A stretch of DNA of 64,000 bases from Mobula birostris (taxonomy: Eukaryota), in the NCBI RefSeq assembly GCF_030028105.1, contig NC_092376.1, forward strand, positions 180,024,080-180,088,079, given 5' to 3'. Below, in pieces: positions 4,812-63,389 of this stretch. The stretch's first letter is position 1. The number at the start of each line of letters is the position of its first letter. The notes beneath the pieces were generated by a model. That model did not search any database and was not told the DNA's origin. It saw only the letters and a program-made list of their open reading frames with translations. A program made the position numbers and the translations under genes.

Positions 4812-5032
4812 CGACTAAGATCAGACGCCGTGAAAACTGCAGAGCAGGCAACATTGGAAGATTTAAACGCGGATCTTTTTGAATTGGAGATAAAAAAGAA
4901 CATTTTAATGCAAACAACAGAGTACATAACAAAAGGTACGGATATTTTCTGCATCGCATTTTCTCATTTATATAAATAGCTGTTAAAAGGCATTGTCTCC
5001 AGTCGAAACCATTGGAATGACTTCTCCTGGAA

Positions 5033-7441
5033 ATGAGAGATAATATAAACTGGCTGGTGAAATATCAAATATTTTACTGTTTGATCACCTATTGGGATGT
5101 TGTTTGTGGCCACATTCGTTACTCTGTTCCCGAGGAATTGCAAGTAGGTGCCTTTATTGGAAATATCGCAATTGATTTGGAGTTAAATTTAAAGCAGCTG
5201 TCGGCTCGCAGATTGCGGGTGGCGCCCAGTCCGAGGAAGCGGTATGTTGACGTCAATTTGGAGAACGGAATTTTATTTGTGAAAGAAAGAATCGACCGGG
5301 AGCAACTTTGCGGGCCGAGCACTGAATGTGTTTTATCATTCAACGTTGTGCATGAAAATCCCCTCGGTCTGCACCAGGTGGAAGTGGAAATTCTCGACGT
5401 TAATGACAACGCCCCCAGTTTTCCTAAAAGACAGATCCGCCTGGAAATCTCAGAGAGTCGGGCACCGGGAGCGCGATTCCACCTCGAGGCCGCTCATGAT
5501 CCGGATATTGGAACTAATTCCTTACAGACATACAAGCTCCTTCCCAATGAATATTTCATTCTTGATGTACAAGAACGAGAAAGGATAGGAAAGTTACCAG
5601 TATTGGTGCTGCTGAGGGCTTTGGACAGAGAAAAGATATCGACCCATCAGATAACTCTAGTTGCCGAGGACGGCGGAGTCCCTGTGAGATCGGGGACTGT
5701 CCAGGTAACAATCAAAGTGAACGATGCGAATGACAACTCTCCTGTTTTCTCACAGTCGGTTTATCAGGTGAGTGTGTCGGAATCGGCTCCCAAAGGAACT
5801 CTGATTATTACGTTAAATGCCACTGATTTGGACGATGGTCCGAATGCAGAGATAAAGTACGACCTTAGCAGCCATAATTCAGCTGAGATTCGTGCATTAG
5901 TAGGAGTGAATTCCAAATCTGGGGAAATCATACTGAAAGGGCAGTTAGACTATGAAGAAAGACAATCTTTTGTCATTAATATTTACGCAATCGATAGTGG
6001 GCATCTCCCAATACCCCAGTACTGCGATGTGTTGGTGGATGTAATCGACGTGAATGACAATGCCCCTGATCTGTTGGTGACATCCATGTCAGATGTCGTG
6101 GCAGAAAATGCTCCAGTGGGAACTATTATCGGCCTTATCAGTGCAGAGGACAAGGATTCTGAGAGAAATGGTCAAGTGCAGTGTCGAATTCCGAATGAAC
6201 TTCCCTTTAAGTTAAATTCCTCTATAAATAACAATTGGAAACTATTTATACAACATGCACTGGATCGCGAAACTACCTCGAGGTATGACATTACTGTAAT
6301 TTGTACTGATGCAGGGGATGCTCCCCTAACATCCAAGAAAACGATCCGCGTAGAAGTTTCAGATATAAATGACAACGCGCCAAGTTTTACGCAGTCTGTA
6401 TACTCGGCTAATATAATGGAAAACAACGATATTGGCGATTCGATATTCTCCCTGACAGCTTTCGATCCAGACTCGGGACAGAATTCCCTATTGAACTTTA
6501 ATATCCTGAATTCAACAGCAGCCTCGTATGTCTCCATCAACTCGCAGAGTGGTGTCATATTTGCTCGGAGAACGTTTGACTTCGAGATTTTGAAGACCTT
6601 CCAGATCCAACTTCAGGTGCAGGATTCTGGAGTCCCAGCCCTCAGCAGTAACGTTATAATCGATGTTGTTGTCCTTGATGAGAACGATAATGCCCCGGTG
6701 ATCGTGCATCCTTTACCTGCGTATGGGTCAACGGTAATGGAGACCATGAGCAGGTTTGCTGAACCTGGATACTTCCTTATCAAGGTCTCAGCTACTGACG
6801 CCGACGCTGGTCAGAACGCCCGTCTGTCTTACCACATTTTTCAGGCTACCAATCGCGATCTATTTACTATTTCAGCAGACACAGGTGAAGTTTGGAGTAT
6901 CCGCGGTATTCGGAGTAAAGACGCTTTAAAACAAAGGCTGGTGATTGTTGTGAAAGATCACGGAACGCCCTCACTTTCAGCCACAGTAACCATAGTAATA
7001 TCTGTGACTGGACATGAAAAGATTTTCAGTGCCACCAATTTAAGTAAAGATCGAGAGTTCTCCCCTGATGTGAACCTTCACTTACTCATAGCATTAGGGA
7101 CAACATCTATAATTTTTCTAGTAATTTTAATTATTCTTGCGATTAAAGTTCATAAAAGCAGAACTGGGATGGGATGCCAATACAATTCTCTGAATATCTG
7201 TTGTTGTTTGGAAACAAGGAACTTCCTAAATGGAACTCAAAAAGCCAGCAGAAGTCTTCAAATACCACCGAACTATGTTGAGGTATTCGGAGGTGATCCA
7301 CTTTCCCAGAGTTTCCGTTACGAGTCGTGTTCCACACTGCACAGCGTGAAGAGAGACTACGCAACCTCACACACCTGCGCACCACCTGCAGGGATGCACT
7401 ACGCAGAGAAAAGTACGATGGGGAAAGCAAATCCAGAAATG
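5033..7441 (+). CDS. Clustered protocadherin variable exon V1 (SP, EC1-6, TM, variable cytoplasmic); 3' end uncertain
   Basis: Cadherin motifs (DxNDN, LDRE/LDYE, AxDxG), TM helix and IPPNYVEVFGGDPLSQ tail. The ancestral donor at 7480 is GC and out of frame. A putative in-frame ATG|GTAAGG donor lies at 7441/7442. The unspliced ORF runs to 7696. Confidence 0.88.
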
Positions 7442-9840: not shown

Positions 9841-10068
9841 CACGTTAAGATCAGACGCCATGAAAACTGAATAGCAGGCAGCACCGGAGGACTTATACAC
9901 GATTCTTTTCGAATGAGAGAATTAAAAACAAGAACATTTCAAAGCAAACGGTAGGGGAAAGAACAAGAAGGTACGGATATTCTCTGCGTCTCCATTTTAC
10001 TATTTAAATAAATCGCTCTTAAAAGGCATTGTCTCGGGTCGAAACTATAGGAATGATTTCTCCTGGAA

Positions 10069-12507
10069 ATGAGAGATAATATAAATTGGCTGGTGAAATA
10101 TCAAATATTTTACTGTTTGATCACCACTTGGGATATTGTTTATGGCCAGATTCGTTATTCTGCTCCCGAGGAATTGCAACGGGGTGCCTTTGTTGGGAAT
10201 ATCGCAATTGATTTGGGGTTTGATTTAAAGCAGCTGTCGGCACGCAAATTGCGGGTGGCACCCAGTCCGAAGAAGCAGTATGTTGACGTCAATTTGGAGA
10301 ATGGAGTTTTATTTGTGAATGAAAGAATTGACAGGGAACAGCTTTGCGGACCGAGCCCTCAATGCGTTTTGTCTTTCAACGTTGTGCTTGAAAATCCCCT
10401 CGGTTTGCACCAGCTGGAAGTGGAGATTCTTGATATAAATGACAACTCTCCCAGTTTCCCGAAACAGCAGATCCGGCTGGAAATCTCAGAGAGCAGGGCA
10501 CCGGGAGCGCGATTCCCCCTTGAAGCCGCGCACGATCCGGACATTGGAACTAATTCCTTGCAGACATACCAGCTCCTCCCCAATGAATATTTCGTTGTTG
10601 ATGTACAAGTCCACGATGGTATAGGGAAGTTCCCAGTATTGGTGTTGCAAAGGGCATTGGACAGGGAAACGATATCGACCCATAGGTTAACGTTACTTGC
10701 TGAAGACGGCGGAGTCCCGGTGAGATCGGGCACAGTCCAGGTAACAGTCATAGTGAACGATGCGAATGACAACCCTCCTGTTTTCTCCCAGTCGGTTTAT
10801 AAGGTCAATATGTTGGAATCGGCTCCCATAGGAACTCTGATTATTACATTAAACGCCACAGATTTGGACGATGGTCCGAATGGAGAGATAACGTATGTTC
10901 TCAGCAGCCACAATTCAGCTGCGGTTCGTGAATTAGTTGTCGTGAATTCCAAAACTGGTGAAATCAGACTGAAAAGGCAATTGGATTATGAACAAAGCAA
11001 AACATTTATGATTAATCTGCAAGCAGTCGATAGCGGCCCTTACCCAACGCCCCAGCACTGTCTTGTTTTGGTGGATGTGATTGATGTGAATGACAACGCT
11101 CCGCAACTGTCGGTGACGTCCATCTCGAATTCTGTGACAGAAAATGCTCCAGTGGGAGCTATTGTCGCCCTGCTCAGTGCGGAAGATAAGGATTCTGGGC
11201 AAAACGGGCATGTCGAATGTCGAATTCCGAATCATCTTCCCTTTAAGTTAGATTCCCCTGTGAAGAACAGTTGGAAACTGCTTGTACAGCATGTGCTGGA
11301 CCGCGAGACTACCTCCAGCTATGACATTACTGTGACTTGTACGGACGCAGGGACGCCGCCCCTCACATCCAAAGAAACGATTCAGGTGCAAGTTTCAGAT
11401 GTAAATGATAATGCACCCAGTTTTACGCAGTCTGTATACACGGCAAATGTTATGGAGAACAACGTTATTGGGGGATCCATATTCTCCGTGACAGCTTTCG
11501 ACCCAGACAGAGGACTGAATGCTCGACTGAAATATACTATCCTGAATTCATCCCTAGCCTCATATGTCTCTATCAACTCGCAGAGTGGTGTCATTTATGC
11601 TCAGAGATCGTATGACTACGAGATGTTGAAAAATTTCCAGGTATACGTTGGGGTGCAGGATTCAGGAATCCCACCCCTCACTAGTAATGTTACAATTGAT
11701 GTTGTTATTCTTGATCAGAACGATAATGCCCCGGTGATCGTGCATCCTTTACTCGAGTATGGGTCAGCAGTAATGGAGACAATGAACAGGTTTGCTGAAC
11801 CTGGATATCTCGTTGTCAAGGTCTCAGCTACTGACGCCGATACTGGTCAGAATGCTCGTCTGTCTTACCACATTTTTCAGGCTACCCATCGCGATCTCTT
11901 TACTATTTCAGCAGAAACCGGTGAAGTTTGGACTATCCGTGACATTCAGATCAAAGATGCTCCAAAACAAAGGCTGGTGATTGTTGTGAAAGATCACGGA
12001 ACGCCCTCACTATCAGCCACAGTAACTATAGCAATATCTATGACAGGTAGTGAAACGATATCCAGCGCCACAGGTCTAAGTAAAGATCGTGAGCTCTCTC
12101 CTAAACTGAACTTTTACTTAGTTATAGCGTTAGGGTCGACATCTATAATTTTCCTCGTCATTTTAATTACCCTTGCTATTAAAGTTCATAATAACAGAAA
12201 CGGAATGGAATGCCAATACAATATCTGTTGCTGTATGGAAACAAGCAACTTTCTAAATGGAACGCAAAAGGCCAGTAGAAGCCTTCAGATTCCACCGAAC
12301 TATGTTGAGGTATTTGGAGGTGATCCACTTTCTCAGAGTTTCCGTTACGAGTCATGTTCAACTTTGCAGACTGTCAAAAGGAACTTCACGGCCCCCCACA
12401 AGCATGGACCGTCTGCAGGTATTCCCTTGGCACAGCAGGAACCTCTTGAGAAAGAAAGTGCAGGAATGGTAAACCCTGAAATCTGCAGCTGCCGTACAAA
12501 TAATGAG
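10069..12507 (+). CDS. Clustered protocadherin variable exon V2
   Basis: 813 intact codons, 6 EC + TM, phase-0 donor GAG|GTGAGT at 12507/12508. Confidence 0.95.
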
Positions 12508-15364: not shown

Positions 15365-15585
15365 CGCTTAAGATCAGTCGCCGTGAAAACTGCATTGCCA
15401 GCAGCACTGGGGATTGGCACTCGGTTCTTTTCACATTGGAACAATCTAAGAACATTTCTAAGCTAACAGCAGAGGATATATCAAAAAGGTACGGATATTT
15501 TCTACATCGCATTTTCACATTTAAATAAATCGCAGTTTCAGGGCATTGTCTCGGCTGGAAACCATTGGAATGATTTCTCCTGGAA

Positions 15586-18015
15586 ATGAGAGACAATATA
15601 TACTGGCTGCTGAAATACCAACTGTTTTACTGCTTGTTCACCTGTTTGGACCCTGTTAGTGGCCAGATTAGATATTCTGTACCCGAGGAATTGCAACTGG
15701 GTGCCTTTGTTGGAAATATTGCAATCGATTTGGAGTTAAATTTAAAGCAGCTGTCTGCTCGTAGTTTGCGGGTGGCGCCCAGTCCGAAGAAGCGGTATGT
15801 TGACGTCAATTTGGAGAATGGAATTCTATTTGTGAATGAAAGAATCGACCGGGAACAACTTTGCGGACCGAACACCGAATGCATTTTATCATTCGACGTT
15901 GTGCTTGAGAATCCCCTCGGTCTGCATCTGGTGGAAGTGGAGATTCTTGATATAAATGACAACGCTCCAAGTTTCCCCAGAAGCCAGATCCGCTTGGAAA
16001 TTTCAGAGATTACGGCACCAGGAGCGCGATTCCCCCTCGAGACCGCGCACGATCCGGATATTGGAGCTAATTCTGTAGAGACGTATCAGCTCCTTCCCAA
16101 TGAATATTTCATTCTTGACTTACAAGTACACGGAGGTATAGGGAAGTTCCCAGTATTGGTGTTGTTAAGGGCATTGGACAGAGAAACGATATCGACCCAT
16201 CAGTTAGTTCTAACTGCCGAAGATGGCGGAGAACCTATGAGATCGGGCAAAGTCCAGGTAAAAATTACAGTGACTGATGCGAACGACAACTCTCCTGTTT
16301 TCTCGCAGTCGATTTATAAGGCCAATATGTTAGAGTCGGTTCCCATAGGAACTCTAATTATTATGTTAAACGCCACAGATGTAGACGATGGCACGAATGG
16401 AGAGATAACGTACGCCCTCGGCAGTCATAATTCAGCTGAGGTTCGCGAATTAGCTGCCGTGAATTCCAAAACTGGTGAAATCAGACTGAAAGAGCACTTG
16501 GACTATGAACAAAGAAAAAGTTTTTTAATAAATATTCAAGCAGTCGATAATGGACATCCCGCAATGTCTGAACATTGTGATGTCCTGGTGGAGGTTATCG
16601 ATGTGAACGACAATGCTCCTGAATTGTCGGTGACGTCGATCTCAAATGACGTGACAGAAAACGCTACAGTGGGAACTACTATCGCACTGCTCCGGGCAGA
16701 GGATAGGGACTCTGGGGAAAATGGACAAGTACAATGTCGAATTCCGAACGAGCTTCCCTTTAAGATGAATTCTTATATAAATAACAATTATAAATTGTTG
16801 GTAGACCGTGCGCTGGATCGCGAAACTACCTCCAGATATGACATCACTGTAACTTGCACAGATGCTGGGAACCCCTCTCTCACATCTAAGGAAACTATCC
16901 GTGTGGAAATTTCAGATGTGAATGATAATGCACCAAGTTTTACGCAGTCTATATACACGATAAATATAATGGAGAACAACATTATTGGAAATTCAATATT
17001 CTCCCTGACAGCTTTCGATCCAGACTCGGGACAGAATTCCCTGTTGAACTTTACTATCCTGAACTCATTTGGAGCTTCATATGTCTCTATCAACTCACAG
17101 ACTGGTGTTATCTTTGCTCAGAGATCTTTTGACTACGAGAAATTGAAAAACTTCCAGTTCCAAGTTAAGGTGCAGGATTCTGGCGATCCCGCCCTCACCA
17201 GTAACGCTACAATTGATGTTGTTATCTTTGATCAGAACGATAACGCCCCGGTGATCGTGCATCCTTTACCCGAGTATGGGTCAGCAGTAATGGAGACCAT
17301 GAGCAGGTTTGCTGAACCTGGATATCTCGTTGTCAAGGTCTCAGCTACTGACGCCGACGCTGGTCAGAACGCCCGTCTGGCTTACCACATTTTTCAGGCT
17401 ACCAATCGTGATCTGTTTACTATTTCAACAGACACAGGTGAAGTTTGGACTGTCCGGGCTATTGAGAGCAAGGATGCTTCTAAACAAAGGCTAGTGATTA
17501 ACGTAAAAGATAACGGAACGCCCTCACTTTCAGCCGCAGTAACCATCGTAATATCTGTGACAGGAAGTGAAACGGTCTCCAGTGCCACCAGTTTAAGTAA
17601 AAATCGCCAGTTCTCTCCCGACCTGAACCTTTACTTAGTTATAGCATTAGGAACGACATCTATAATTTTCCTGATAATTTTAATTATCCTTGCTATGAAA
17701 GTTTATAACAGAACTGGAATGGGATGCCAAAGCAATGTCGGGTGCTGTCTGGATACAAGAAACTTTCTTAACGGGACTCAGAAGGCCAGTAGGAGCCTTC
17801 AGATACCACCGAACTATGTCGAGGTATTCGGAGGTGATCCACTTTCTCAGAGCTTCCGTTACGCGTCTTGTTCAACATTGCAGTCCATGAAGAGAGACTT
17901 CACAGCCCCTCGTGGACCATCTACATCTATTCCTTACACCCACAAGAAACCCACTGGGAAAGAAAGCCCTGGAATGTTATCTACTGAAGACTACAGTTGC
18001 AATACAAATAATGAG
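15586..18015 (+). CDS. Clustered protocadherin variable exon V3
   Basis: 810 intact codons, 6 EC + TM, donor GAG|GTGAGC at 18015/18016. Confidence 0.95.
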
Positions 18016-20991: not shown

Positions 20992-21214
20992 TGCTTGAGA
21001 TCAGACGCCGTGAAAACCGGAGAGCAGGCAGCATCGGAGGATTTATAGACGGTCGGTCTCCCACTGGAATCAACGTGAAAACATTTCAATGAACACAACA
21101 GATTGCAAAAAAAAGGTACATATATTTTCTGAATCGCATTTGTCTCCTTTAAAACAATACGTTGTTAAAAGGCATTGCGTCGTATCGAGACCGTTGGAAT
21201 GATTTCCACTGGAA

Positions 21215-24138: not shown

Positions 24139-24143
24139 TTTTA

Positions 24144-27562: not shown

Positions 27563-27649
27563 GCTTTAAGAAATGGTGTGCATCATGATTCGCTGAATAT
27601 CAGTACGCTTGTGTTCACCAATCAGAAGCTAAGAAATGTTTGGAGATCC
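27563..27649 (+). promoter_or_regulatory. Conserved promoter module of V5
   Basis: GCTTTAAGAAA 27563; ATTCG (variant) 27588; CCAAT 27618; TGGAGATCC ending at 27649. Confidence 0.75.
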
Positions 27650-27900
27650 GGACTGCCCTCTAGCATTACCCACCCTCCCTTACGTGAGATCAGAAGCGGT
27701 GAAAAAAAAAATTGGCTGGTCAGATTTTATTGCGAGAATACATTGGAAACTGAGCAAAAGCAGAAGATGGGGACGAAATGAACCGTGCGATTTATGATCC
27801 GGCAGGAGAGTCGAATATCAAGGTTTATAAAAATCTGAATAAAGGAACGATTAATGGTGGCATCAGGTACTAACAAACGTTGGAATGGTTTACACTGGAA

Positions 27901-32212: not shown

Positions 32213-32507
32213 TGACTGCCCCCTTCCCTCCCGGTCCACCATCACAGACGATGCAATCCTGAATGGCGGACTGCCGAGAGCTTGCTTGGTTTATTCCGCT
32301 ACTCATGAGCTTCAGAAAAAAACAAGGGTTGCCGGAAGGAATCTCAAAGGCTCGCAAAACCCATTTTGTCTTTTTTTTTATTTGTGTGTATCTATGTGTT
32401 TTTTAACGTTTGCTCACCAAGGACATGATTTATCAAGAAATTAATGTGGAAGACTGAACCGACTGCGCCGTGTAGCGCTGAAATAATTGGAATGTTTTGT
32501 ACCTGCG

Positions 32508-40700: not shown

Positions 40701-41446
40701 CACGCTAGTCATGACCAATTCTCTTTACAACGCAGCTATACCGAGAGGAGAATCTTCCTGCATTAAATTATATTCACACTGTATGTGTAGCCTAAACAAA
40801 ACTACATGAAGTTTCGCTCATGACTTTTGATTTTTTTTTATAGCTATGAATTGTCAAAAGGACAATGTGGAAAAGAAAGAGAGAGTACCTAAATTTCTCG
40901 TGCTAATTTCGCGTACTTTCATGAGATTTCTGACATCTGCAAATACTAGCTGCATCAATGCATCTATGTAGAATATATCAGTGTCGTTGGATAATTCTGC
41001 TTGAATTTGAAAAATAAAACATTGGTAGACGCGGTAAATCACCTTGTGCTTTGATCCCGAAGAGGATTTGGACCCGAATGCTAAAAGTTAAAGCAAGTTT
41101 CTGCTAATCCACTGTGCAGTGTTCCTTCCTAACAGATAAGTTCTAACTTGTTTGCTTCTACTGAGAGTACGCATGACCAAGACAGTTAAAGGTAGTTAAA
41201 TATATTTCACGAACAATTGCTCAAAATTGCATTTGTTCAGCCGAAATGTGGGATAGGAAAATATAGTACATGCGCTTCTTCATGCATGTGTGCTCTTCTT
41301 GATGCGTCTTCTGAATAGGGAAAGTTCGAATATATTGCAATCATTTCTTAGAGAAAAAATCTAAAATATTGAAAGTTAAAGTGTATGAATATATTTTGAT
41401 TGCGCAACAATAAATGTGTGCTATATCGCTTTAATATGACAGTCTT

Positions 41447-41521: not shown

Positions 41522-41796
41522 TGACTGTCCTTTTTCTTCCACCATTACATATGAAGACGAGACAATGTGAATTGGATAGCGAGCTGCCTTGGGTTGCAGT
41601 CGTTTGCTTCCGCCTTTCTTTCGTGGATTTTATCACCCAGCTGGAGAAATTCATCAAATAATCCAGACTTTTTTTGAAAGAGAAGGTTTTTTTACAAGGA
41701 AGCCTTTCTTGTGAAGGTATACATCTGCTTTTATCACGGGAATAAACCGAAAGCCACGGTATCGCACGGAAGCCATTGGAATGTTTAACACCGGCG

Positions 41797-48390: not shown

Positions 48391-48646
48391 GTGTGTGAGT
48401 AGATGCCGTGTATCATGGATAGAGCTGCCTGTCGTTACATTCGGTTCTTTGCAATCATCTATTGGCGAAATTAGAAGAAATACGAAGGTTTGTCGGAAAT
48501 CCAAACGCAGAATTTTTGAGCAGTATGTATGGTTTTATGAAATTCAGCTGTATTTGTCAAAATGGAACCATGATTTGCTCTTTTTGGCAGGAATTATTGA
48601 ACGGTGCCGCGTTGTTCTCAATTGTTTGAAATGCTTTATGCTGGAA

Positions 48647-51088
48647 ATGGGACTTTATAGATTATATTTGCTAATGAAATGGAAACTTTTATGTTTCATT
48701 ATCCCTTCCTGTCAACTAATTTCTGGACAAATACGTTATGCGATTCCTGAAGAATTGAATGCCGGCGCCTTTGTTGGGAATATCGCAGAGGACCTGAATT
48801 TAGATGTAAAACAACTCTCGGTTCGCGGCTTTCAAATCATGCCTGGACCTGGCAAACAGTATATAGATGTAAATTTAGACAATGGGGTTTTACTTGTGAA
48901 AGAAAAAATGGACAGAGAACAGTTGTGTGAGCAGAGCCTCGTTTGCACGTTATCTTTAGAAGCGGTGATTGAAAATCCTCTAAATGTCTATCATTTTCAA
49001 GTGGACATTCTGGACGTAAATGATAATGCCCCGAGATTTCCAGAGAGCCAGTTCCGTTTGGAAATTTTGGAGGTTGCTGCTCCTGGAACTCGATTCGCTC
49101 TGGAATGCGCACAGGACCCGGACATTGGAACCAACTCAGTGCAAAGCTACCAGCTAACAGAGAACGGCTATTTCTCCCTCGATGTCGAGACGCTGGGTGG
49201 CGACGGAAAGGTACCGGTTTTAGTCTTGGAAAGATCGCTGGACAGAGAAAAGGAAAGTGCTCACAGGTTGGTGCTGATCGCTAACGATGGAGGGGTTCCT
49301 CGGAGATCTGGCTCTGCTGAGATACTGATCGTTGTCGGGGATACCAATGATAACGCGCCCGTTTTCTCCCAGTCCATCTACAGGGTCAGTTTGTGGGAGA
49401 ATGCACCGAAAGAGACATTAGTGATAAAACTGGATGCTTCAGATCTGGACGCTGATCTCAATGGCCAGGTAGTGTATTCGTTTGGCAGTCATACTTCGAG
49501 CAGAGTTCGTGAAATATTTCGGCTAGATTCCACAACTGGCGAAATTAGAATTAAGAACAATTTGGACTACGAGAAAAATAGTGTTTTTGAGATTAACGTT
49601 CAAGCGAAAGATATGGGTCCTTACGCAACTCCTGTATACTGTCACGTGGTGGTCAAAATTCTTGATGTGAACGACAACGCTCCTGTGATTACATTGACAT
49701 CTTTATTCAGTCCTGTCAGCGAAGATTCCCTCGCGGGGACAGTGGTGGCTCTGATTACTTCAACGGACAAGGACTCAGCTGAAAACGGGGACGTGGATTG
49801 CGAAATCACACAGGACCTTCCCTTTAAACTGGATTCATCTGTACGTAACTATTACAGACTGGTTACCCAGCACACACTGGATCGTGAACATGTATCAGCC
49901 TACAATGTAACTGTCGTGTGCACCGACGCTGGGGTTCCCCCTCTCACATCCAACAAAACGATCCCGGTGGAGATCTCGGATATAAATGATAACCCACCCC
50001 AGTTTACACAGCCTGTATATACAGCTTATGTAATGGAGAATAACGCCATAGGTGCATCCATTTTCACTGTGACTGCTTTCGATCAAGATTCAAATAGGAA
50101 CGCCGATGTGTCATACTTTATTTTGGAGAGTCAGATTCAGGGCATGTCAGTGGCCGCATATGTCTCCATTAACTCACACAGCGGGGTCATATTTTCGCAG
50201 AGAAGTTTCGACTTCGAGAATCTCAAAAACTTTCAGCTCCTGGTTCAGGCGCGGGATTCCGGATCCCCACCACTTTCTGGAAATGCCTCAGTGGATGTAA
50301 TTATCTTGGATCAGAACGACAATGCCCCCGTGATCTTGCAACCACTACCCGAATTCGGCTCCACTGTGTCAGAGACCATATCCAGGCTCGCAGAACCAGG
50401 TTACCTGGTTACGAAGGTTTCTGCTACCGACGGTGACTCTGGCCAGAATGCTCGCCTTACCTACCAGATTCTTCAAGCTACTGAGGTCGGTCTATTTACC
50501 ATTTCACCGGACACGGGAGAGATCTGGACAATACGCAGTATTAGTAAGAATGACGCTGTCAAACAAAGATTGGTCATCTGCGTTAACGACGATGGATCAC
50601 CGTCACTGACAGCCACCGTGACAATCATTTTGTCTTTAGTTGGAAATGATAGACAAGTGCTGTCGGAACGGAATAGTTTGTCTGAGAATCCAGGGTTTGA
50701 TTTTGATACCAGCTTTTACCTCGTAATCGCTTTAGGGGTCACCTCCTCCGTGTTCCTGGTGATTTTGATTATCCTCGCCGTTAAGGTTCATAGATCCTCT
50801 TCTCTTGGCGCATGTGGTTGTCTTACAGTAAGAAACTCGTTACATGGATTTCAAAGAGGCAATAGAACCCTCCAGATACCACCGAACTACGTTGAGGTGT
50901 TTGGGGGTGATCCACTTTCTCAGAGTTTCCGCTATGATTCATGCTCAAGTTCACGTTCTGTGAAGAGGGATTTCAGGTTGTCCAGCAGCGCATCTACGCG
51001 AAAGGATTTTACTCCGAGTGGCGTTCTGGGAAATGGCGATACTTTACAAACCGCCAAGTCTGCGCAGTGCAGGAATACTGTAAATGAG
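48647..51088 (+). CDS. Clustered protocadherin variable exon V8
   Basis: Paralog-equivalent ATG at 48647 (alternative in-frame ATG at 48638); 814 codons; donor GAG|GTGAGG. Confidence 0.93.
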
Positions 51089-51729
51089 GTGAGGTTGCAT
51101 TTCGGTAGCGAGAAGAGCACCTCATGGGTCTCGATTGGAAGTACAAATGTTTACTGAATATATTTAGATCATGTCATCTGAATTTGCAGTAGTTATTTCA
51201 GGAACAGCTGCACTGCAAATGAATCAGTTGCCTTTTTTGCGATTATAATGTGTTACCATTTCGTTGCATGTGGGAGTTAGAAAATGTTACCATTGAGGAT
51301 ATACGGATACAGCACAAAAATAGTCCTGGATTTATTGTCAGCGAAAATTTCGTGGATCACAGGCCCTGAGGAAGTTAAAACGAAATGAATATTATTGCTC
51401 CACCCGTGGTACTGATGTCACAAGTTTTGGTGTTGGGTTAATATTTCTATGAAGACATTGTGAAATGTCATTTTTATTTAACTATGGCTTATATATTGCC
51501 TTACCGTCATAATATATAATAATATGACGTTTTAATGTACTATAATGGGGATTGTGTATAAGCAAAATAGGTGCTAGTGATCTATTCTGAAAGTGTGTAC
51601 ATCAGTTTATAGATGCTTCCAAAACTACGTAACATAATCTTTTTTTAATGGGTTAGAAAGTAGTTATTCTTAGAAAGTCCGCCAAAAAGTAGCAGCGGAA
51701 AGGAAATTTTCAACCTAATGCAGAAAATT

Positions 51730-51830
51730 AACCTTGAAATGGCTGGGCTACAGCAGCAGAAGATCACGTATATGCACTTTGTGGCCACTTTATTAGGTAC
51801 AAGAGGGATCTAATAAAGTGGCCATTGGGA
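51730..51830 (+). mobile_element. Tc1-like 3' remnant carried in the duplicated unit
   Basis: AACCTTGAAATGGCTGGGCTACAGC...GTGGCCACTTTATTAGGTAC...CTAATAAAGTGGCCA. Confidence 0.7.
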
Positions 51831-52306
51831 ACATAAGCGCATCCAATTCCATTTAAAATTCGTACTTTAAGAGTGCAAGGGCCGTGGGCGAGGTACCATC
51901 GCAATAGTAGATCTTTGTTTTCCGTAGCCTCGCTACCTTTTGAGCATTATTCTCCTCTCACCCTCATCAAGAAAATATTCAAATTGTCAAATCATTGTTT
52001 TCTATTTTCACCTCAGTCATTTGATATTCACGCAGTGCTCTAACGCCAAAAGTACTATGAGATGATGTTCAAGTTATTTAAGAAAGTTAAATGTTAAATA
52101 TGGAACGATAAGTAAGAATGGTTTTGGCGAATCGAACTGATTAAGCATTCAGTGAAATATAATTCTTGATAAAGAATGAATTGCAAATAATCTACGTGCA
52201 AAATATACTGCAGAATTCAATATTGTTGTAAAACAATCTAAACTGGTGAAATTAAATATTTGTTGGATTTATTATTGTACACCTTTAAATATACACAATT
52301 GCGCTA

Positions 52307-52420
52307 GCTTTAAGAAATGCTAGTGTGACGATTGGCTGAACTTCTGTCAGCCTCGTTAGCCAATGAGCGGATCTAATGTGACTGGAGATCCTTGCTGTCC
52401 TACCCTCCCCTTCCGCCATT
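52307..52420 (+). promoter_or_regulatory. Conserved promoter module of V9
   Basis: GCTTTAAGAAA 52307; ATTGG 52331; CCAAT 52360; TGTGACTGGAGATCC 52377; CCGCCATT 52413. Confidence 0.8.
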
Positions 52421-52676
52421 GTATACGAGTAGATACCGTGTATCATGGATAGAGCTGCCTCTCCTTACATTCAGTTCTTTACAATCATCCATTGGCGAAA
52501 TTAGAAGAAAGAAGAAAGTCTATCGGAAATCCTAAAGCAGAATTTTATAAGCAGTACGTATGGTTTTATACAATTCAGCTGTATTTGTCAAAATGGAAAC
52601 ATGATTTAATCTTTTTAGCAGGGATTATTAACGGCGCTGCGTTGTTCTCAATCCCTGGAAATGCTTTCTGTTGCAA

Positions 52677-55118
52677 ATGGAATTTTATAAATTATATTTG
52701 CTAAGGAAATGGAAACTTTTATATTTCATTATCACTTCCTGGCAAGTAATTTCTGGACAAATACGTTATTCGATTCCTGAAGAATTGAATGCCGGTGCCT
52801 TTGTAGGGAACATTGCAGAGGACCTGAATTTGAATATAAAGGAATTTTCGGCTCGCGGCTTTCAAATTATGCCTGGACCTAGCAAGCAGTATATTGATGT
52901 AAATATAGACAATGGGGTTTTATTTGTGAGGGAAAAAATCGACAGGGAACAGTTATGTGAACGGAGCCTCGCATGTACGTTATCAGTGGAAGCGGTGATA
53001 CAGAATCCTGTAAATGTGTATCATTTTCACGTGGATGTTTTGGACGTAAATGACAATGCCCCGAGATTTCCAGACAGCCGCTTTATTTTGGAAATATCAG
53101 AGGTCGCTGCTCCTGGAACCCACTTCGCTCTGGAGTGCGCACAAGACCCGGACGTTGGAACCAACTCTGTACAAAGCTACCAGTTACTAGAAAATCTTTA
53201 TTTCTCTCTCGATGTTGAGAAGGGCGTTGGCGGCGAAAAACTACCGGTTTTAGTGTTGGAAAGACAGCTGGACAGAGAAAAGGAAACTACCCACAGGGTG
53301 GTGTTGATAGCTAAGGATGGAGGGTTTCCTGAGAGATCTGGCACTGCTGAGATATTGATCATTGTTGAGGATGCCAATGACAACGCGCCTGTTTTCCCTC
53401 AATCTGTCTACAGGGTCAGTTTGCCAGAGAATGCACCCAAAGCAACATTAGTGATTAAATTAGATGCCGCCGATTTGGATGCTGGAGTCAATGGGCAGAT
53501 AGTGTATTCGTTTAGCAGTCACACTTCAAATACAGTTCGTGAAATGTTTGGGCTGGATTCCAAATCTGGCGAAATCAGAATTAAGAATAATTTGGACTAC
53601 GAGGAAAACAGTGTTTTTGAGATAAATGTCCAAGCAAAAGATATGGGTCCTAACGCAACTCCTGTGTATTGTCAGGTGGTGGTTGACATTGTTGATATGA
53701 ACGACAACGCTCCTGTGATTACACTGACATCTTCCTTCAGTCCAATCCGCGAAGATTCACCCCCGGGAACTGTAGTGGCTCTCATCAGTTCAACAGACAA
53801 GGATTCAGCTGAGAACGGGGACCTGGATTGTGAAATCACAAAGGAACTTCCGTTCAAACTAGAGTCATCCTCACGTAACTATTACAGACTGGTTATCTGG
53901 GAGACACTGGATCGTGAACATGTATCAGCCTACAATGTAACTGTCGTGTGCACCGACGCTGGGGTTCCCCCTCTCACATCCAACAAAACGATCCCGGTGG
54001 AGATCTCGGATATAAATGATAACCCACCCCAGTTTACACAGCCTGTATATACAGCTTATGTAATGGAGAATAACGCCATAGGTGCCTCCATTTTCACTGT
54101 GACTGCTTTCGATCAAGATTCAAATAGGAACGCCGATGTGTCATACTTTATTTTGGAGAGTCAGATTCAGGGCATGTCAGTGGCCGCATATGTCTCCATT
54201 AACTCACACAGCGGGGTCATATTTTCGCAGAGAAGTTTCGACTTCGAGAATCTCAAAAACTTTCAGCTCCTGGTTCAGGCGCGGGATTCCGGATCCCCAC
54301 CACTTTCTGGAAATGCCTCAGTGGATGTAATTATCTTGGATCAGAACGACAATGCCCCCGTGATCTTGCAACCACTACCCGAATTCGGCTCCACTGTGTC
54401 AGAGACCATATCCAGGCTCGCAGAACCAGGTTACCTGGTTACGAAGGTTTCTGCTACCGACGGTGACTCTGGCCAGAATGCTCGCCTTACCTACCAGATT
54501 CTTCAAGCTACTGAGGTCAGTCTATTTACCATTTCACCGGACACGGGAGAGATCTGGACAATACGCAGTATTAGTAAGAATGACGCTGTCAAACAAAGAT
54601 TGGTCATCTGCGTTAACGACGATGGATCACCGTCACTGACAGCCACCGTGACAATCATTTTGTCTTTAGTTGCAAATGATAGACAAGTGCTGTCAGAACT
54701 GAACGGTTTGTCTGCGGATCCCGGGTTTGCTTCTGATACCAGCTTTTACCTCGTAATCGCTTTAGGGGTCACCTCCTCCGTGTTCCTGGTGATTTTGATT
54801 ATTCTCGCCGTTAGGGTTCACAGATCCTCTTCTCTTGGCGCATGTGGTTGTCTTACAGTAAGAAACTCGTTACATGGATTTCAAAGAGGCAATAGAACCC
54901 TCCAGATACCACCGAACTACGTTGAGGTGTTTGGGGGTGATCCACTTTCTCAGAGTTTCCGCTATGATTCATGCTCAAGTTCACGTTCTGTGAAGAGGGA
55001 TTTCAGGTTGTCCAGCAGCGCATCTACGCGAAAGGATTTTACTCCGAGTGGCGTTCTGAGAAATGGTGATACTTTACAAACCGCCAAGTCTGCGCAGTGC
55101 AGGAATACTGTAAATGAG
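52677..55118 (+). CDS. Clustered protocadherin variable exon V9
   Basis: ATG at 52677; 814 codons; donor GAG|GTGAGG. Confidence 0.95.
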
Positions 55119-55846
55119 GTGAGGTTGTTATTCGCTGGTGAGAACAACACCTCATGGGTCTCGATTGGATGTACAAATCTTTACCGAAAATATTCAGATC
55201 ATGGAGACTGGATTTAAGAAATATGTATGAATCAGTCATATTAGATTACAGTGTTATCTGAATTTCCAGTCGCTATTTCTGGACCAGTACTTCTGCTTAT
55301 CAATCATTTGCCTTTTGGTGCGATGAGAGTATTTTGGCATTTTATTGCAGATGGGAGTTAGAAAATGTTACCTTTGAAGATGTACCGATGAATCACAACA
55401 ATAGTCCTGGATGTATTACCAGCTATATTTTCGTGTAAGAACAGAGGAAATCCAGCTACTTCTCTAGGGCAGGAGAAGTTAAACGAAATTAGCATCATTG
55501 ATGCACCCAATGCACTGGTGTCGTGAGTTTTGGTATTGGATTGATATCTCTAATGAGAAATGGTGAAATATCTCAAACAACTCAAATCAATAGTCAGTTG
55601 CTTATATATTGTCATAATATATGTATATGACATTATATTGTTATATAATAGGGATTAGGTATTTCAAATAAGCAAAATAAGTGCCAGTGATCTGTTTTGA
55701 AAGTATGAAGTCATGGACACCAATTGTTAGATGCTTCCAAATTTGCATAAGATAGTTTCTTTCAATCAGTTGACAAGTGCTAACTCTTAGAAAATCTACC
55801 AAAATTTAGCAGTGGAAAGGACATTTCCTAACCAACACAGAAAATT

Positions 55847-55949
55847 AACCTAGAAGTGGACATGCTACAGCCGTAGAAGACCACGAACATAAACTCAGTG
55901 GCCACTTTATTAGGTATAGGAGGAACCTAATAAAGCAGCCGTTGGGTGT
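55847..55949 (+). mobile_element. Tc1-like 3' remnant carried in the duplicated unit
   Basis: CTCAGTGGCCACTTTATTAGGTAT...CCTAATAAAGCAGCC. Confidence 0.7.
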
Positions 55950-56433
55950 CTAAGCACATCTAATTCCCTTTAAAATTCGTCCTTTCAAAGGCCGTAGTGT
56001 GGGGTACCATCGCAGCTGTAAACGTTACTTTCCTCTTGATTCGCTACCTTTTGAAGTTTATTCAAAATTCCTCCACCAGCCCCCACCTTTAATCAAGAGC
56101 GTATTGAAATTGTCAATTCATTGTTTTTTTTTTCTTTTCACCGCAACAATTTTATATTCACATCCTGCTGTAATGCCCAAAGTACTATGAGGTCATATTC
56201 AAGTTATTTCAGAATGTTAAATGTTAAATATAGAATGATAAGTACGACTGGCTTTGCGAACAGAACTGTTTAAGATTCAGTAAAATATTACTCTTGATTT
56301 CGACTGAATTGCAAATGAACTAAGTGTAAAATGCACAAAAACTGTAATATTGCTGTAAAACAATCTAGAATTGCGAAATTAACTGAGAGTTAGATTTTAT
56401 ATTGTACAACTTAAAATATAGACAATTGCGCCA

Positions 56434-56547
56434 GCTTTAAGAAATGCCTAGTGTGGTGATTGGCTGAATTTATGTCAGCCTCTTTAGCCAATGAGAGGCT
56501 GTAATGTGACTGGAGATCCTTGATGCCCTACCCTCCCCTTCCGCCAT
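56434..56547 (+). promoter_or_regulatory. Conserved promoter module of V10
   Basis: GCTTTAAGAAA 56434; ATTGG 56459; CCAAT 56488; TGTGACTGGAGATCC 56505; CCGCCAT 56541. Confidence 0.8.
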
Positions 56548-56803
56548 GATATACGAGTAGGTACCGTGTATCATGGATAGAGCTGCTCGTCCTTACATTC
56601 GGTTCTTTACAATCATCTGTTGGCGAAATTAGAAGAAATAAGAAGGTTTGTCGAAAATCCTAAAGCAGACTTTTTAAGCAGTACGAAAGGTTTTGTACAA
56701 TTCAGCTGTATTGTTAAAATTGAGCCATGATTTACTCATTGTAGTCGGAATTATTCAACGGCGCTGCGTTGTTCTCAGTCGTTTGAAATGCTTTGTGCTG
56801 GAA

Positions 56804-59245
56804 ATGGAATTTTATAAATTATATTGGCTGATGAAATGGAAACTTTTATATTGTTTTATCCCTTCCTGGCAAGTAATTTCTGGACAGATACGTTATTCGA
56901 TTCCTGAAGAATTGAATGTCGGCGCCTTTGTTGGGAATATCGCAGAGGACCTAAATTTGGATATCAAAGAACTTTCATCTCGCGGCTTTCAAATTGTGAC
57001 AGGACCTAGTAAGCAGTATATTGATGTAAATTTAGACAGCGGGGTTTTAGTTGTGAAGGAAAAAATGGACAGGGAACTGTTGTGCGAGCAGAAACTCGCC
57101 TGCACGTTATCTCTGGAAACGGTGGTTCAAAATCCTCTAAATATCTATCATATTCAAGTGGACATTCTGGACGTAAATGATAATGCCCCGCGTTTTCCTG
57201 AGAGTCGCATTAGGTTGGAAATATCGGAGGTGGCTGCCCCAGCAACGCGCTTCGCTCTGGAGTGCGCACAGGACCCGGACGTTGGATCCAACTCGGTACA
57301 AAGCTACCAGCTCGTGGAGAACGGCTACTTCTCTCTCGATGTTGAGACGCGGGGTGGCAGCGAAAAATTACCGGTTTTAGTCTTGGAAAGACAGCTGGAC
57401 AGAGAAAAGGAAAGTAACCACAGGTTGGTGTTGATAGCTGCGGATGGAGGGGTTCCTGAGAGATCTGGCACTGCTGAAATATTGATCGTTGTTGAGGATG
57501 CCAATGACAACGCGCCTGTTTTCCCGCAACCTGTCTACAGGGTCAGTTTGCCAGAGAATGCACCCAAAGGAACATTAGTGATTAAATTAGATGCCGCTGA
57601 TTTAGATACTGGAGTCAATGGGCAAATAGTGTATTCGTTTAGTAGTCATACTTCAAATAGTGTTCGTGAAATGTTTTGGCTGGATTCCAAATCTGGCGAA
57701 ATCAGAATTAAGAATAATTTGGACTACGAGGAAAATAGTGTTTTTGAGATAAATGTCCAAGCAAAAGATATGGGTCCTTACGCAACTCCTGTATACTGTC
57801 ACGTGGTGGTCAAAATTGCTGATGTGAACGACAACGCTCCTATGATTACACTGACATCTTTATTCAGTCCAATCCGCGAAGATTCCTCACCGGGGACTGT
57901 GGTGGCTCTGATCAGTTCAACGGACAAGGATTCAACTAAAAACGGGGATTTGGATTGCGAAATCCCAAAAGGTCTTCCATTTAAACTAGTTTCAACTTTA
58001 CAAAAATATTATAAACTGGTTATCTGGGAGACACTGGATCGTGAACATGTATCAGCCTACAATGTTACTGTCGTGTGCACCGACGCTGGGGTTCCCCCTC
58101 TCACATCCAACAAAACGATCCCGGTGGAGGTCTCGGATATAAATGATAACCCACCCCGGTTTACACAGCCTGTATATACAGCTTATGTAATGGAGAATAA
58201 CGCCATAGGTGCATCCATTTTCACTGTGACTGCTTTCGATCAAGATTCAAATAGGAACGCCGATGTGTCATACTTTATTTTGGAGAGTCAGATTCAGGGC
58301 ATGTCAGTGGCCGCATATGTCTCCATTAACTCACACAGCGGGGTCATATTTTCGCAGAGAAGTTTCGACTTCGAGAATCTCAAAAACTTTCAGATCCTGG
58401 TTCAGGCGCGGGATTCCGGATCCCCACCACTTTCTGGAAATGCCTCAGTGGATGTAATTATCTTGGATCAGAATGACAATGCCCCTGTGATCGTGCAACC
58501 ACTACCCGAATTCGGCTCCACTGTGTCAGAGACCATATCCAGGCTCGCAGAACCAGGTTACCTGGTTACGAAGGTTTCTGCTACCGACGGTGACTCTGGC
58601 CAGAATGCTCGCCTTACCTACCAGATTCTTCAAGCTACTGAGGTCGGTCTCTTTACCATTTCACCGGACACGGGAGAAATCTGGACAATACGCGGTATTA
58701 GTAAGAATGACGCCGCCAAGCAAAGGTTGGTCATCTGCGTTAAGGACGATGGATCACCGCCACTGACAGCCACCGTGACAATCATTTTGTCTTTAGTTGG
58801 AAATGATAGAAAAGTGCTGTCGGAACGGAATAGTTTGTCTGAGAATCCAGGGTTTGCTTCTGATACCAGCTTTTACCTCGTAATCGCTTTAGGGATCACC
58901 TCCTCCGTGTTCCTGGTGATTTTGATTATTCTCGCCGTTAAGGTTCATAGATCCTCTTCTCTTGGCGCATGTGGTTGTCTTACAGTAAGAAACTCGTTAC
59001 ATGGATTTCAAAGAGGCAATAGAACCCTCCAGATACCACCAAACTACGTTGAGGTGTTTGGGGGTGATCCACTTTCTCAGAGTTTCCGCTATGATTCATG
59101 CTCAAATTCACGTTCTGTGAAGAGGGATTTCAGGTTGTCCAGCAGCGCATTTACGCGAAAGGATTTTACTCCGAGTGGCGTTCTGGGAAATGGCGATACT
59201 TTACAAACCGCCAAGTCTGCGCAGTGCAGGAATACTGTAAATGAG
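56804..59245 (+). CDS. Clustered protocadherin variable exon V10
   Basis: ATG at 56804; 814 codons; donor GAG|GTGAGG. Confidence 0.95.
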
Positions 59246-59981
59246 GTGAGGTTGTTATTCGCTGGCGAGAACAACACCTCATGGGTCTTGATTGGATGTA
59301 CAAATCTTTACTGAAGATATTTAGATCGTGGAGACTGGATTTAGGAAATATGTATGAATCAGTCATATTAGATTACAGTGTTATCTGAATTTCCAGTCGC
59401 TATTTCTGGACCAGTACTTACGCTAATCAATCATTTGCCTTTTGATGTGATGAGAGTGTTTTAGCATTTTGTTGCATATGGGAGTTAGAAAATGTTACCG
59501 TTGAAGATGTAACGATGAATCACAACAATAGTCCTGGATTTATTACCAGCTATATTTTCGTGTAAGAAAACAGGAAATCCAGGTACTTCGCTAGGGCAGG
59601 GGAAGTTAAATCAAATTAGTATTATTGATCCACCCAATGCACTGGTGTCGTGAGTTCTGGTATTGGATTGATATCGCTAATGAGAAATTGTGAAATACCT
59701 TGTTTTGCTCAAATAACAAATCAATAGTCATTTGTTTATATAATGTCATAATATATGTATATGACATTATAATGTTATATAATAGGGATTAGGCATTTAA
59801 AATAAGCAAAATAAGTGCCAGTGATCTGTTTTGCAAGTATGAAATCCTGGACACCAATTGTTAGATGCTTCCAAATTTGCATAAAAATAGTCTCTTTCAA
59901 TGGGTTGACCAGTACTAACTCTTAGAAAATCTACCAAAATTTAGCAGTGGAAAGGACATTTCCTAGCCAACACAGAAAATT

Positions 59982-60084
59982 AACCTTGAAGTGGACGTGC
60001 TATAGCAGTGGAAGACCACGAACATACACTCAGTGGCCACTTTATTAGGTACAGGAGGAACCTAATAAAGTAGCCGCTGTGTGT
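59982..60084 (+). mobile_element. Tc1-like 3' remnant carried in the duplicated unit
   Basis: CACTCAGTGGCCACTTTATTAGGTAC...CCTAATAAAGTAGCC. Confidence 0.7.
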
Positions 60085-60573
60085 CTAAGCACATCTAATT
60101 CCCTTTAAAATTCGTCCTTTCAAAGACCATAGTGTGGGGTACCATCCCAGGTGTAAACGTTACTTTCCTCTTGATTCGCTACCTTTTGAAGATTATTCAT
60201 TATTCCTCCACCCACCCACCCCACCTTTAATCGACAGAGTATTGAAATTGTCAATTCATTGTTTTTTTTCTTTACACCGCAACAATTTTATATTCACATC
60301 CTGCTATAATGCCCAAAGTACTATGAAGTCATATTCAAGTTATTTCAGAATGTTATATGTTAAATATACAGAACGATTAGTACGACTAGCTTTGGCGAAC
60401 TAAACTGTTTAAGATTCAGTAAAATATAACTCTTGATTTCGACTGAATTGCAAATGAATTAAGTGTAAAGTGTACTGTAAACTGTAATATTGCTGTAAAA
60501 CAATCTAGAATAGTGAAATTAACTGAGAGTTAGATTTTATATTGTACAACTTAAAATATAGACAATTGCGCCA

Positions 60574-60687
60574 GCTTTAAGAAATGCCTAGTGTGGTGAT
60601 TGGCTGAATTTATGTCAGCCTCTTTAGCCAATGAGAGGCTGTAATGTGACTGGAGATCCTTGATGCCCTACCCTCCCCTTCCGCCAT
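60574..60687 (+). promoter_or_regulatory. Conserved promoter module of V11
   Basis: Identical to the V10 module at offset +4140. Confidence 0.8.
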
Positions 60688-60947
60688 GATATACGAGTAG
60701 GTACCGTGTATCATGGATAGAGCTGCTCGTCCTTCCTTACATTCGGTTCTTTACAATCATCTGTTGGCGAAATTAGAAGAAATAAGAAGGTTTGTCGAAA
60801 ATCCTAAAGCAGACTTTTTAAGCAGTACGAGAGGTTTTGTACAATTCAGCTGTATTGTTAAAATTGAGCCATGATTTACTCATTGTAATCGGAATTATTC
60901 AACGGCGCTGCGTTGTTCTCAGTCGTTTGAAATGCTTTGTGCTGGAA

Positions 60948-63389
60948 ATGGAATTTTATAAATTATATTGGCTGATGAAATGGAAACTTTTATATTGTTT
61001 TATCCCTTCCTGGCAAGTAATTTCTGGACAGATACGTTATTCGATTCCTGAAGAATTGAATGTCGGCGCCTTTGTTGGGAATATCGCAGAGGACCTAAAT
61101 TTGGATATCAAAGAACTTTCATCTCGCGGCTTTCAAATTGTGACAGGACCTAGTAAGCAGTATATTGATGTAAATTTAGACAGCGGGGTTTTAGTTGTGA
61201 AGGAAAAAATGGACAGGGAACTGTTGTGCGAGCAGAAACTCGCCTGCACGTTATCTCTGGAAACGGTGGTTCAAAATCCTCTAAATATCTATCATATTCA
61301 AGTGGACATTCTGGACGTAAATGATAATGCTCCGCGTTTTCCTGAGAGTCGCATTAGGTTGGAAATATCGGAGGTGGCTGCCCCAGCAACGCGCTTCGCT
61401 CTGGAGTGCGCACAGGACCCGGACGTTGGATCCAACTCGGTACAAAGCTACCAGCTCGTGGAGAACGGCTACTTCTCTCTCGATGTTGAGACGCGGGGTG
61501 GCAGCGAAAAATTACCGGTTTTAGTCTTGGAAAGACAGCTGGACAGAGAAAAGGAAAGTAACCACAGGTTGGTGTTGATAGCTGCGGATGGAGGGGTTCC
61601 TGAGAGATCTGGCACTGCTGAAATATTGATCGTTGTTGAGGATGCCAATGACAACGCGCCTGTTTTCCCGCAACCTGTCTACAGGGTCAGTTTGCCAGAG
61701 AATGCACCCAAAGGAACATTAGTGATTAAATTAGATGCCGCTGATTTGGATGCTGGAGTCAATGGACAGATAGTGTATTCGTTTAGCAGTCACACTTCAA
61801 ATACAGTTCGTGAAATGTTTGGGCTGAATTCCAAAACTGGCGAAATCAGAATTAAGAATAATTTGGACTACGAGGAAAATAGTGTTTTTGAGATAAATGT
61901 CCAAGCAAAAGATATGGGTCCTAATGCAACCCCTGTATACTGTCATGTGGCGGTTAACATTGTTGATGTGAATGACAACGCTCCTGTGATTACACTGACA
62001 TCTTTATTCAGTCCTATCAGCGAAGATTCCCTCCCGGGAGCTGTGGTGGCTCTGATTAGTTCAACTGACAAAGATTCAGCTAAAAACGGGGATTTGGATT
62101 GCGAAATCCCAAAAGGTCTTCCATTTAAACTAGTTTCAACTTTACAAAAATATTATAAACTGGTTATCTGGGAGACACTGGATCGTGAACATGTATCAGC
62201 CTACAATGTTACTGTCGTATGCACCGACGCTGGGGTTCCCCCTCTGACATCCAACAAAACGATCCCGGTGGAGGTCTCGGATATAAATGATAACCCACCC
62301 CGGTTTACACAGCCTGTATATACAGCTTATGTAATGGAGAATAACGCCATAGGTGCATCCATTTTCACTGTGACTGCTTTCGATCAAGATTCAAATAGGA
62401 ACGCCGATGTGTCATACTTTATTTTGGAGAGTCAGATTCAGGGCATGTCAGTGGCCGCATATGTCTCCATTAACTCACACAGCGGGGTCATATTTTCGCA
62501 GAGAAGTTTCGACTTCGAGAATCTCAAAAACTTTCAGATCCTGGTTCAGGCGCAGGATTCCGGATCCCCACCACTTTCTGGAAGTGCCTCAGTGGATGTA
62601 ATTATCTTGGATCAGAATGACAATGCCCCTGTGATCGTGCAACCACTACCCGAATTCGGCTCCACTGTGTCAGAGACCATATCCAGGCTCGCAGAACCAG
62701 GTTACCTGGTTACGAAGGTTTCTGCTACCGACGGTGACTCTGGCCAGAATGCTCGCCTTACCTACCAGATTCTCCAAGCTACTGAGGTCGGTCTATTTAC
62801 CATTTCACCGGACACGGGAGAGATCTGGACAATACGCAGTATTAGTAAGAATGACGCCGCTAAGCAAAGGTTGGTCATCTGTGTTAAGGACGATGGATCA
62901 CCGCCACTGACGGCCACCGTGACAATCATTTTGTCTTTAGTTGGAAATGATAGACAAGTGCTGTCGGAACGGAATAGTTTGTCTGAGGATCCAGGGTTTG
63001 ATTTTGATACCAGCTTTTACCTCGTAATCGCTTTAGGGGTCACCTCCTCCGTGTTCCTGGTGATTTTGATTATCCTCGCCGTTAAGGTTCATAGATCCTC
63101 TTCTCTTGGCGCATGTGGTTGTCTTACAGTAAGAAACTCGTTACATGGATTTCAAAGAGGCAATAGAACCCTCCAGATACCACCGAACTACGTTGAGGTG
63201 TTTGGGGGTGATCCACTTTCTCAGAGTTTCCGCTATGATTCATGCTCAAGTTCACGTTCTGTGAAGAGGGATTTCAGGTTGTCCAGCAGCGCATCTACGC
63301 GAAAGGATTTTACTCCGAGTGGCGTTCTGGGAAATGGTGATACTTTACAAACCGCCAAGTCTGCGCAGTGCAGGAATACTGTAAATGAG
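60948..63389 (+). CDS. Clustered protocadherin variable exon V11
   Basis: ATG at 60948; 814 codons; donor GAG|GTGAGG. Confidence 0.95.

Follow-up and report, generated by a model that had tools for sequence, protein, structure and literature searches.

Why should every gene of a tandem array carry, at one fixed distance before its start codon, a second ATG in another reading frame? The question is raised by a 64,000-nucleotide stretch of Mobula birostris DNA (contig NC_092376.1, positions 180,024,080 to 180,088,079 of the forward strand; hereafter the window, to which coordinates below refer) that contains 11 tandem plus-strand open reading frames (ORFs) of 815–887 amino acids, each a protocadherin variable exon (V1–V11). 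A first-pass annotation of the window had reported an ATG 16 nt upstream of each start codon, and we find that in 11/11 pairs both triplets are indeed ATG, offset by 16 nt and in different frames, with no stop in the upstream frame before the main ATG. The resulting upstream ORFs (uORFs) lie on the plus strand at 5017–5043 (V1, 8 codons, main ATG at 5033), 10053–10079 (V2, 8 codons, 10069), 15570–15659 (V3, 29 codons, 15586), 21199–21357 (V4, 52 codons, 21215), 27885–27911 (V5, 8 codons, 27901), 32492–32569 (V6, 25 codons, 32508), 41781–41810 (V7, 9 codons, 41797), 48631–48660 (V8, 9 codons, 48647, with an extra in-frame ATG at 48638), 52661–52690 (V9, 9 codons, 52677), 56788–56817 (V10, 9 codons, 56804) and 60932–60961 (V11, 9 codons, 60948), eight of them thus having the 8–9 codons originally noted. 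We show below that this upstream ATG (uATG) is real, old and under selection, and that its role is probably translational. With modest confidence, we favor the view that it is a long-conserved, out-of-frame, predicted leaky decoy start codon that lowers the output of the genes that carry it.

The window exons (5033–63458) belong to the variable exons of the clustered protocadherin-nu (Pcdh-nu) genes, as their architecture, their shared constant region and their place in a single clade all indicate. Each combines a signal peptide, six cadherin repeats, a transmembrane helix and a cytoplasmic stub in one large exon (that of V5, for example, occupies 27901–30327 on the plus strand and ends at a GT donor), and homologues of the encoded proteins carry cadherin Pfam domains. 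The best protein match of V6 is a stingray protein (92% identical), and matches with names include Callorhinchus protocadherins nu8, nu9, nu13, nu15 and nu17. A search of the M. birostris genome returned 79 matches, 71 of them in a single 2.3-Mb array on contig C8, and 60 array members outside the window were retrieved for comparison. The array continues beyond the window on this contig (L046–L060) and ends in three nu-type constant exons (L065, L066 and L071), recognized by their matches to the tail of Callorhinchus nu15. A common cytoplasmic motif is found in 26 intact exons, which together with Callorhinchus nu8, nu9, nu13, nu15 and nu17 form one clade (FastTree support 0.987); pairwise protein identity among these 26 paralogs is 52–97%, with a mean of 63%. 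The nu subcluster is reported, in the available part of the source, to be specific to cartilaginous fishes (PMC2764143). In V8–V11 (48647–63458) the 3′ halves are near-identical and the 5′ halves more diverged, a pattern of regional gene conversion, and V10 and V11 are recent duplicates.

Although the uATG had initially been described as cluster-wide, its distribution is narrower than that. An ATG at −16 is present in 25 of the 26 intact exons of the nu paralog group in the whole genome, the exception being L046, which reads AAG, and in none of the 42 other variable exons to which a start could be assigned (pseudogenes L012, L044 and L045, which have no start to assign, were excluded from this count). 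A uORF that begins upstream and out of frame and ends past the main start is found in 11/11 genes of the window and in 24 of the 25 genes of the group that have the uATG. The sole non-overlapping case is L060, the last variable exon, whose 4-codon uORF occupies −16 to −2 and ends in a TGA one base before the main ATG. L046 is the 5′-most intact member of the group; it has lost both the uATG and its upstream flank, and N-terminal likeness points to sawfish P0111 as its apparent ortholog.

The 11 genes are paralogs rather than independent trials, and significance was therefore computed on the gene tree. On the 26-gene tree the A, T and G of the uATG require 0, 1 and 0 parsimony steps, respectively. 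By comparison, 50 fourfold-degenerate sites average 7.0 steps with none below 2, the leader columns from −45 to −28 take 5–10 steps, and one step or fewer is seen at only 10 of 725 third codon positions. In neutral simulations on a third-position tree with a length of 9.6 substitutions per site, the ATG was retained in 4.8 of 26 genes on average; with rates independent among sites, 1 run in 200,000 retained it in at least 25 genes (P ~5e-6), and P was ~2e-4 under a shared rate and 0.017–0.04 at a quarter of the third-position rate. Neutral persistence of the ATG, through shared descent or gene conversion among paralogs, might be expected of tandem genes with near-identical 3′ halves (V8–V11) in a family in which conversion is documented, at least in the part of that report available (PMC1852091). 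However, this explanation is largely refuted. Gene conversion does not explain the retention of the ATG because columns −13, −12, −9, −8 and −7, between the two ATGs, change 5–9 times, as neutral sites do, so that the region has not been homogenized; the length of the third-position tree also speaks against a relic. Pseudogene L044, moreover, retains the outline of the surrounding block and has lost both ATGs. Taken together, these data indicate that the ATG and the G three bases before it are under purifying selection.

What is conserved around the uATG bears on what it does. The uATG is the most conserved of the 25 triplets within a block from −27 to −1, in which 11 of 27 columns take two steps or fewer, as against 44 of 725 third codon positions; such columns include T−21, G−19, T−11, T−10, C−6 and G−3. 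The constrained start-proximal block, defined by these column step counts and extending from −27 to +3, is present in every gene of the group (in V6 it occupies 32481–32510 on the plus strand). The 13 bases between the two ATGs are consequently not as free to vary as the first-pass annotation had it: T−11 is invariant, and T−10, C−6, G−4 and G−3 change only 1–3 times. At the positions −3, −2 and −1 relative to each ATG, the uATG shows 1, 3 and 2 steps and the main ATG 1, 4 and 4. The base at −3 of the uATG is G in 25 of the 25 genes having the ATG, its +4 position is unconstrained (A, C, T or G; 5 steps), and the variants GAAATG (the form in V8–V11, as originally read), GCAATG, GGGATG and GGTATG all retain both the G and the ATG. 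The substitution profile around the uATG thus resembles that of a true start codon.

The same columns could instead form a DNA element whose core spells ATG by chance, such as a binding site for a transcription factor, a downstream promoter element or a chromatin element. We judge this explanation unlikely, yet it is the one to be taken most seriously among the alternatives. The constrained columns are spread with interruptions over −27 to −1, as those of a composite binding site might be; the whole octamer has decayed together in L046; and the commonest form, TTGGAATG(T/C), matches what we take to be the TEAD/MCAT core motif, GG(A/T)ATG being present in 18 of the 26 genes. Known control of clustered protocadherins is also promoter-based, according to the available portions of two studies (PMC3333863, PMC2926608). 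Against it, the TEAD-type core is broken by 5 steps at −18 and −17 while the ATG and the G at its −3 position stay, and 7 genes without the core still have the ATG, which upholds the earlier judgment that TEAD is inadequate as an explanation. A TEAD/MCAT site was accordingly rejected, its core being found in 18 of 26 copies rather than in all. A REST/NRSE site was rejected as well: a few genes have no more than a stretch resembling a half-site around −37 to −26, and the columns there take 5–9 steps.

Could the uORF matter through its product or its end, that is, through a micropeptide, through stop–start reinitiation or through a frameshift into the main frame? Across the 25 genes, 19 uORFs have 8–9 codons and stop 9–14 nt beyond the main ATG, and the peptides follow a loose M-x-x-[PTA]-G-[ND] pattern; codon 2 has T as its last base in every case, with another T after it almost without exception. 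Even so, we consider such a role very improbable. The early stop has been lost in five separate genes (25–52 codons) and precedes the main ATG in L060 (4 codons), a rate of loss close to that of twofold synonymous sites (mean 4.7 steps), and codon periodicity is absent from the main frame (32/32/36 steps) and likewise from the uORF frame. A conserved-peptide uORF was rejected on the absence of periodicity and on lengths that run from 4 to 52 codons. Hidden N-terminal coding in the main frame, dismissed at first reading on account of an in-frame TGA at codon −5 in V1–V4, fares no better here: an in-frame TGA at −5 blocks such an extension in many genes, and main-frame coding, or a selenocysteine-like alternation of TGA and TGY, was rejected on the lack of periodicity, the in-frame stops and the general absence of an upstream in-frame start. 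A protein search with the upstream frame of V8 gave one match and no useful extension. Because neither peptide nor stop is retained, the act of initiation is the likely function.

Is the uATG part of the mRNA? Transcript contigs were taken from sequencing runs X1, X3, X8 and X11, which belong to ten runs guessed to be RNA, none being recorded as such. Contigs from X3, X8 and X11 run on the genome as far as 30331, 34962 and 44254, immediately past the GTGA common to the donor and the first constant exon (the donors of V6 and V7 lie on the plus strand after 34958 and 44250, as placed by the contig ends), and those from X8 and X11 carry 15–24 further letters past the GTGA; in this respect they behave like spliced mRNA. 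For V5, an X11 contig (27706–30331) runs through the uATG into the splice junction. For V6, contigs from three studies start at 32264 (X3), 32265 (X11) and 32298 (X1), and for V7 they start at 41562 (X11) and 41353 (X8), all of these spanning the uATG. The RNA-like contigs thus begin 195–245 nt upstream of the start codon and cross the uATG, and we therefore estimate a leader of about 200–240 nt that includes it. In V5, V6 and V7, then, the uATG is bridged by contigs of putative RNA, in V5 by a spliced one, and the idea of a conserved overlapping uORF start within the mRNA leader, conserved on the tree and bridged by contigs, holds up. Comparison of four runs with a 72-nt stretch of V3 found paralog contigs that cross the uATG, with differences only far from the contig ends, and is hence uninformative on the letters of the uATG itself.

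The placement of the leader also bears on a DNA element. About 230–330 nt before each start (for example at 4750–4815) lies a promoter module that, in V5 (27618–27690, plus strand, by sequence alignment), consists of a CCAAT box followed 25 nt later by a GATC anchor and a CTCF-like C-rich motif, together with a GCCGCCAT motif; the names are our own assignments, the last motif being presumably YY1-like in reverse orientation. The distance from this module to the start codon varies across genes from −258 to −302, that is, by 44 nt, and is not fixed relative to the uATG, whereas the distance from the uATG to the start codon is constant. The uATG lies, in addition, some 200 nt downstream of the contig 5′ ends. 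Both observations argue against a DNA element. The block lies within the mRNA, is tied to the start codon and keeps U residues besides that of the ATG, all of which would suit an RNA-level protein-binding site or a general initiation-tuning sequence in which the upstream AUG is incidental. This we regard as improbable, since no consensus RNA structure was found (RNAalifold energy 0.0 in three folding windows; mean z 0.12) and several genes retain the AUG although their GAAUG pentamer is disrupted.

How old is the uATG? Comparison across chondrichthyans was made at the level of amino acids, in gene models extended at the N terminus, where an ATG at −16 reads as Cys, Trp or stop at position −5, preceded by a codon ending in A. 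Twenty rows had at least five upstream residues; removal of one from another subcluster and of one duplicate left 18. In 12 of these 18 models, Cys at −5 follows E, K, Q or G, which places a TG at the same position and is compatible with ATG; they come from Callorhinchus (5 genes), Heptranchias, Scyliorhinus, Rhincodon, Pristis and Hypanus. The element apparently predates the split between holocephalans and elasmobranchs, which took place about 420 million years ago. Retention of the TG in chimaera models speaks further against a neutral relic, and the occurrence of the same K and G variants in those models against a DNA element.

These findings lead us back to a leaky decoy start codon. A scanning 43S complex would meet an upstream AUG with G at −3 and mostly a base other than G at +4; a purine at −3 without G at +4 constitutes an intermediate start context. 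Some ribosomes would initiate there, cross the real start out of frame, stop and be lost, others would leak through to the main AUG, and each isoform would as a result yield less protein. T−21, T−11, T−10 and C−6 would tune both start sites or form part of an overlapping element, and the decoy could coexist with a DNA element or an RNA-binding site. We think it likely that ribosomes initiate at the uATG, that some leak past it to the main ATG and that output is thereby reduced. In reporters in yeast and HeLa cells, the extent to which out-of-frame upstream AUGs reduce output depends on distance and context; competition between two AUGs occurs at spacings below about 17 nt, and part of the loss proceeds via nonsense-mediated decay, as far as the accessible part of that study goes (PMC9743702). 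The 16-nt spacing seen here is at the edge of that range. In the parts available of two surveys, vertebrate uORFs become scarce toward coding starts and mostly sit in poor context (PMC4890304), and overlapping uORFs are generally purged as slightly deleterious, with survivors in strong context being conserved (PMC3486843). Retention in 25 paralogs against such purging pressure therefore points to a use. Other ATGs in the nu leaders are mildly depleted (61 observed, 82 expected), and several other triplets are equally so.

Several observations weigh against a decoy start codon. L046 is an intact member of the group without the uATG, and the fixed spacing is in itself weak evidence, for 13 nt may avoid insertions and deletions by chance. 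The conservation of T−21, T−11, T−10, A−26 and C−6 is not accounted for by a start codon alone, and the 61 other leader ATGs mean that the −16 uORF is not the sole uORF. The runs that yielded the transcript contigs are only guessed to be RNA, and the contigs do not reveal which start site dominates; from X3 there is one that begins at 41778, 3 nt before the uATG of V7, and X8 contigs start upstream of the promoter module. Finally, for other genera the amino acids imply the A of the ATG without showing it, and 6 of the 18 models lack Cys at −5. These six are fused multi-exon predictions in which likeness to the block ends at −5 or −4, and we tentatively read these points as predicted splice junctions; four of the six models seem to be orthologous to genes that have TGA at −5.

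Out-of-frame ATGs also occur before other variable exons of the array. In the group L008–L019, 9 of 11 intact genes have one at −10, in the same frame as the −16 ATG, with a weak context (T or C at −3) before a strong main start; the leader there is well conserved throughout, and the −10 ATG does not stand out. In L036 and L038 (group L036–L038), which use a short signal peptide of 19 amino acids, an out-of-frame ATG, again in that frame, lies at −25 from the first in-frame Met. It precedes the first cadherin repeat by 82 nt, the place occupied by the true start codon in other genes, and may itself have served as a start codon until it was put out of frame; decoys of this kind could originate in such a way. 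In L039, a distant gene on the tree, the true start and first codons look like the nu uATG with its following bases, a likeness hinting that the nu uATG could be an ancestral start.

A broader and decidedly tentative proposal would see in the decoy a second, translational layer of control added to stochastic promoter choice, copied with every nu exon for more than 400 million years and capping and equalizing the protein made from each isoform, with the −10 and −25 ATGs of the two other groups reflecting repeated arrival in chondrichthyan Pcdh subclusters, possibly via demoted start codons. Promoter choice and splicing account for nearly all that is currently said of clustered protocadherin diversity; a start-codon decoy retained in almost every member of a subcluster since the early cartilaginous fishes would show that protein dose per isoform, too, is under long-term selection. 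The genes would in addition offer a natural series for the spacing and context of AUG pairs, with 25 variants, a natural loss in L046 and the single non-overlapping uORF of L060. The finding is limited in scope, the uATG being found in a subcluster missing from bony vertebrates. The host subcluster and the class of overlapping uORFs were already known. We found no report of the −16 element in paper searches pairing protocadherin with uORF-type terms, a coverage that did not extend to the original elephant-shark description of nu (Yu et al. 2008) and its supplements, and a conserved −16 uORF in nu genes thus seems to be previously unreported.

Two further features of the locus were noted. Between V6 and V7, 36800–40900 holds nested and tandem fragments of a high-copy retroelement, presumably of LINE type, within which a 260-amino-acid ORF on the minus strand (37252–38034) resembles the C-terminal part of a reverse transcriptase. 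The second nu constant exon, L066, contains at about 5050–5230 a repetitive (E/D)VQR(E/D) tract that the Callorhinchus nu tail also has.

The nu uATG can be set beside several known systems. Like the overlapping uORFs of vertebrates, conserved cases of which exist despite purging, it is an out-of-frame leader AUG with no stop before the coding start (PMC3486843, PMC4890304, each as far as available). It differs from them in its single fixed offset in 25 of 26 tandem paralogs down to 52% protein identity and in having a purine at −3 throughout; vertebrate uORFs, by contrast, are as a rule scarce close to the coding start and poor in context, according to the part of the survey at hand (PMC4890304). 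The pair of AUGs also recalls those that compete under Brownian ratchet scanning, which are in different frames, lie within about 17 nt and divide initiation by distance and context; those pairs, in the accessible text, were studied in synthetic yeast and HeLa reporters, whereas the nu pair is natural, conserved and at the edge of the competitive range (PMC9743702).

A likeness can further be drawn to uORF2 of ATF4, an overlapping, out-of-frame and stress-regulated uORF that blocks the main start. Both are overlapping and out of frame, but the nu genes have no conserved short upstream uORF1, their other leader ATGs varying in number and place, and the nu overlap is short and its stop not conserved. 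Among the cis-elements of clustered protocadherins, the CSE/CTCF site, the SSE and the NRSE are, like the nu block, present in copies ahead of every variable exon in a paralog group. Those are promoter or intergenic DNA elements, as described in the portions available (PMC3333863, PMC2926608), whereas the nu block lies in the transcribed leader beside the start codon; the CCAAT and CTCF-like module of the nu genes is separate from the −16 element and is located 260–330 nt upstream. What the available text of the literature on the nu subcluster treats is its organization and evolution only (PMC2764143).

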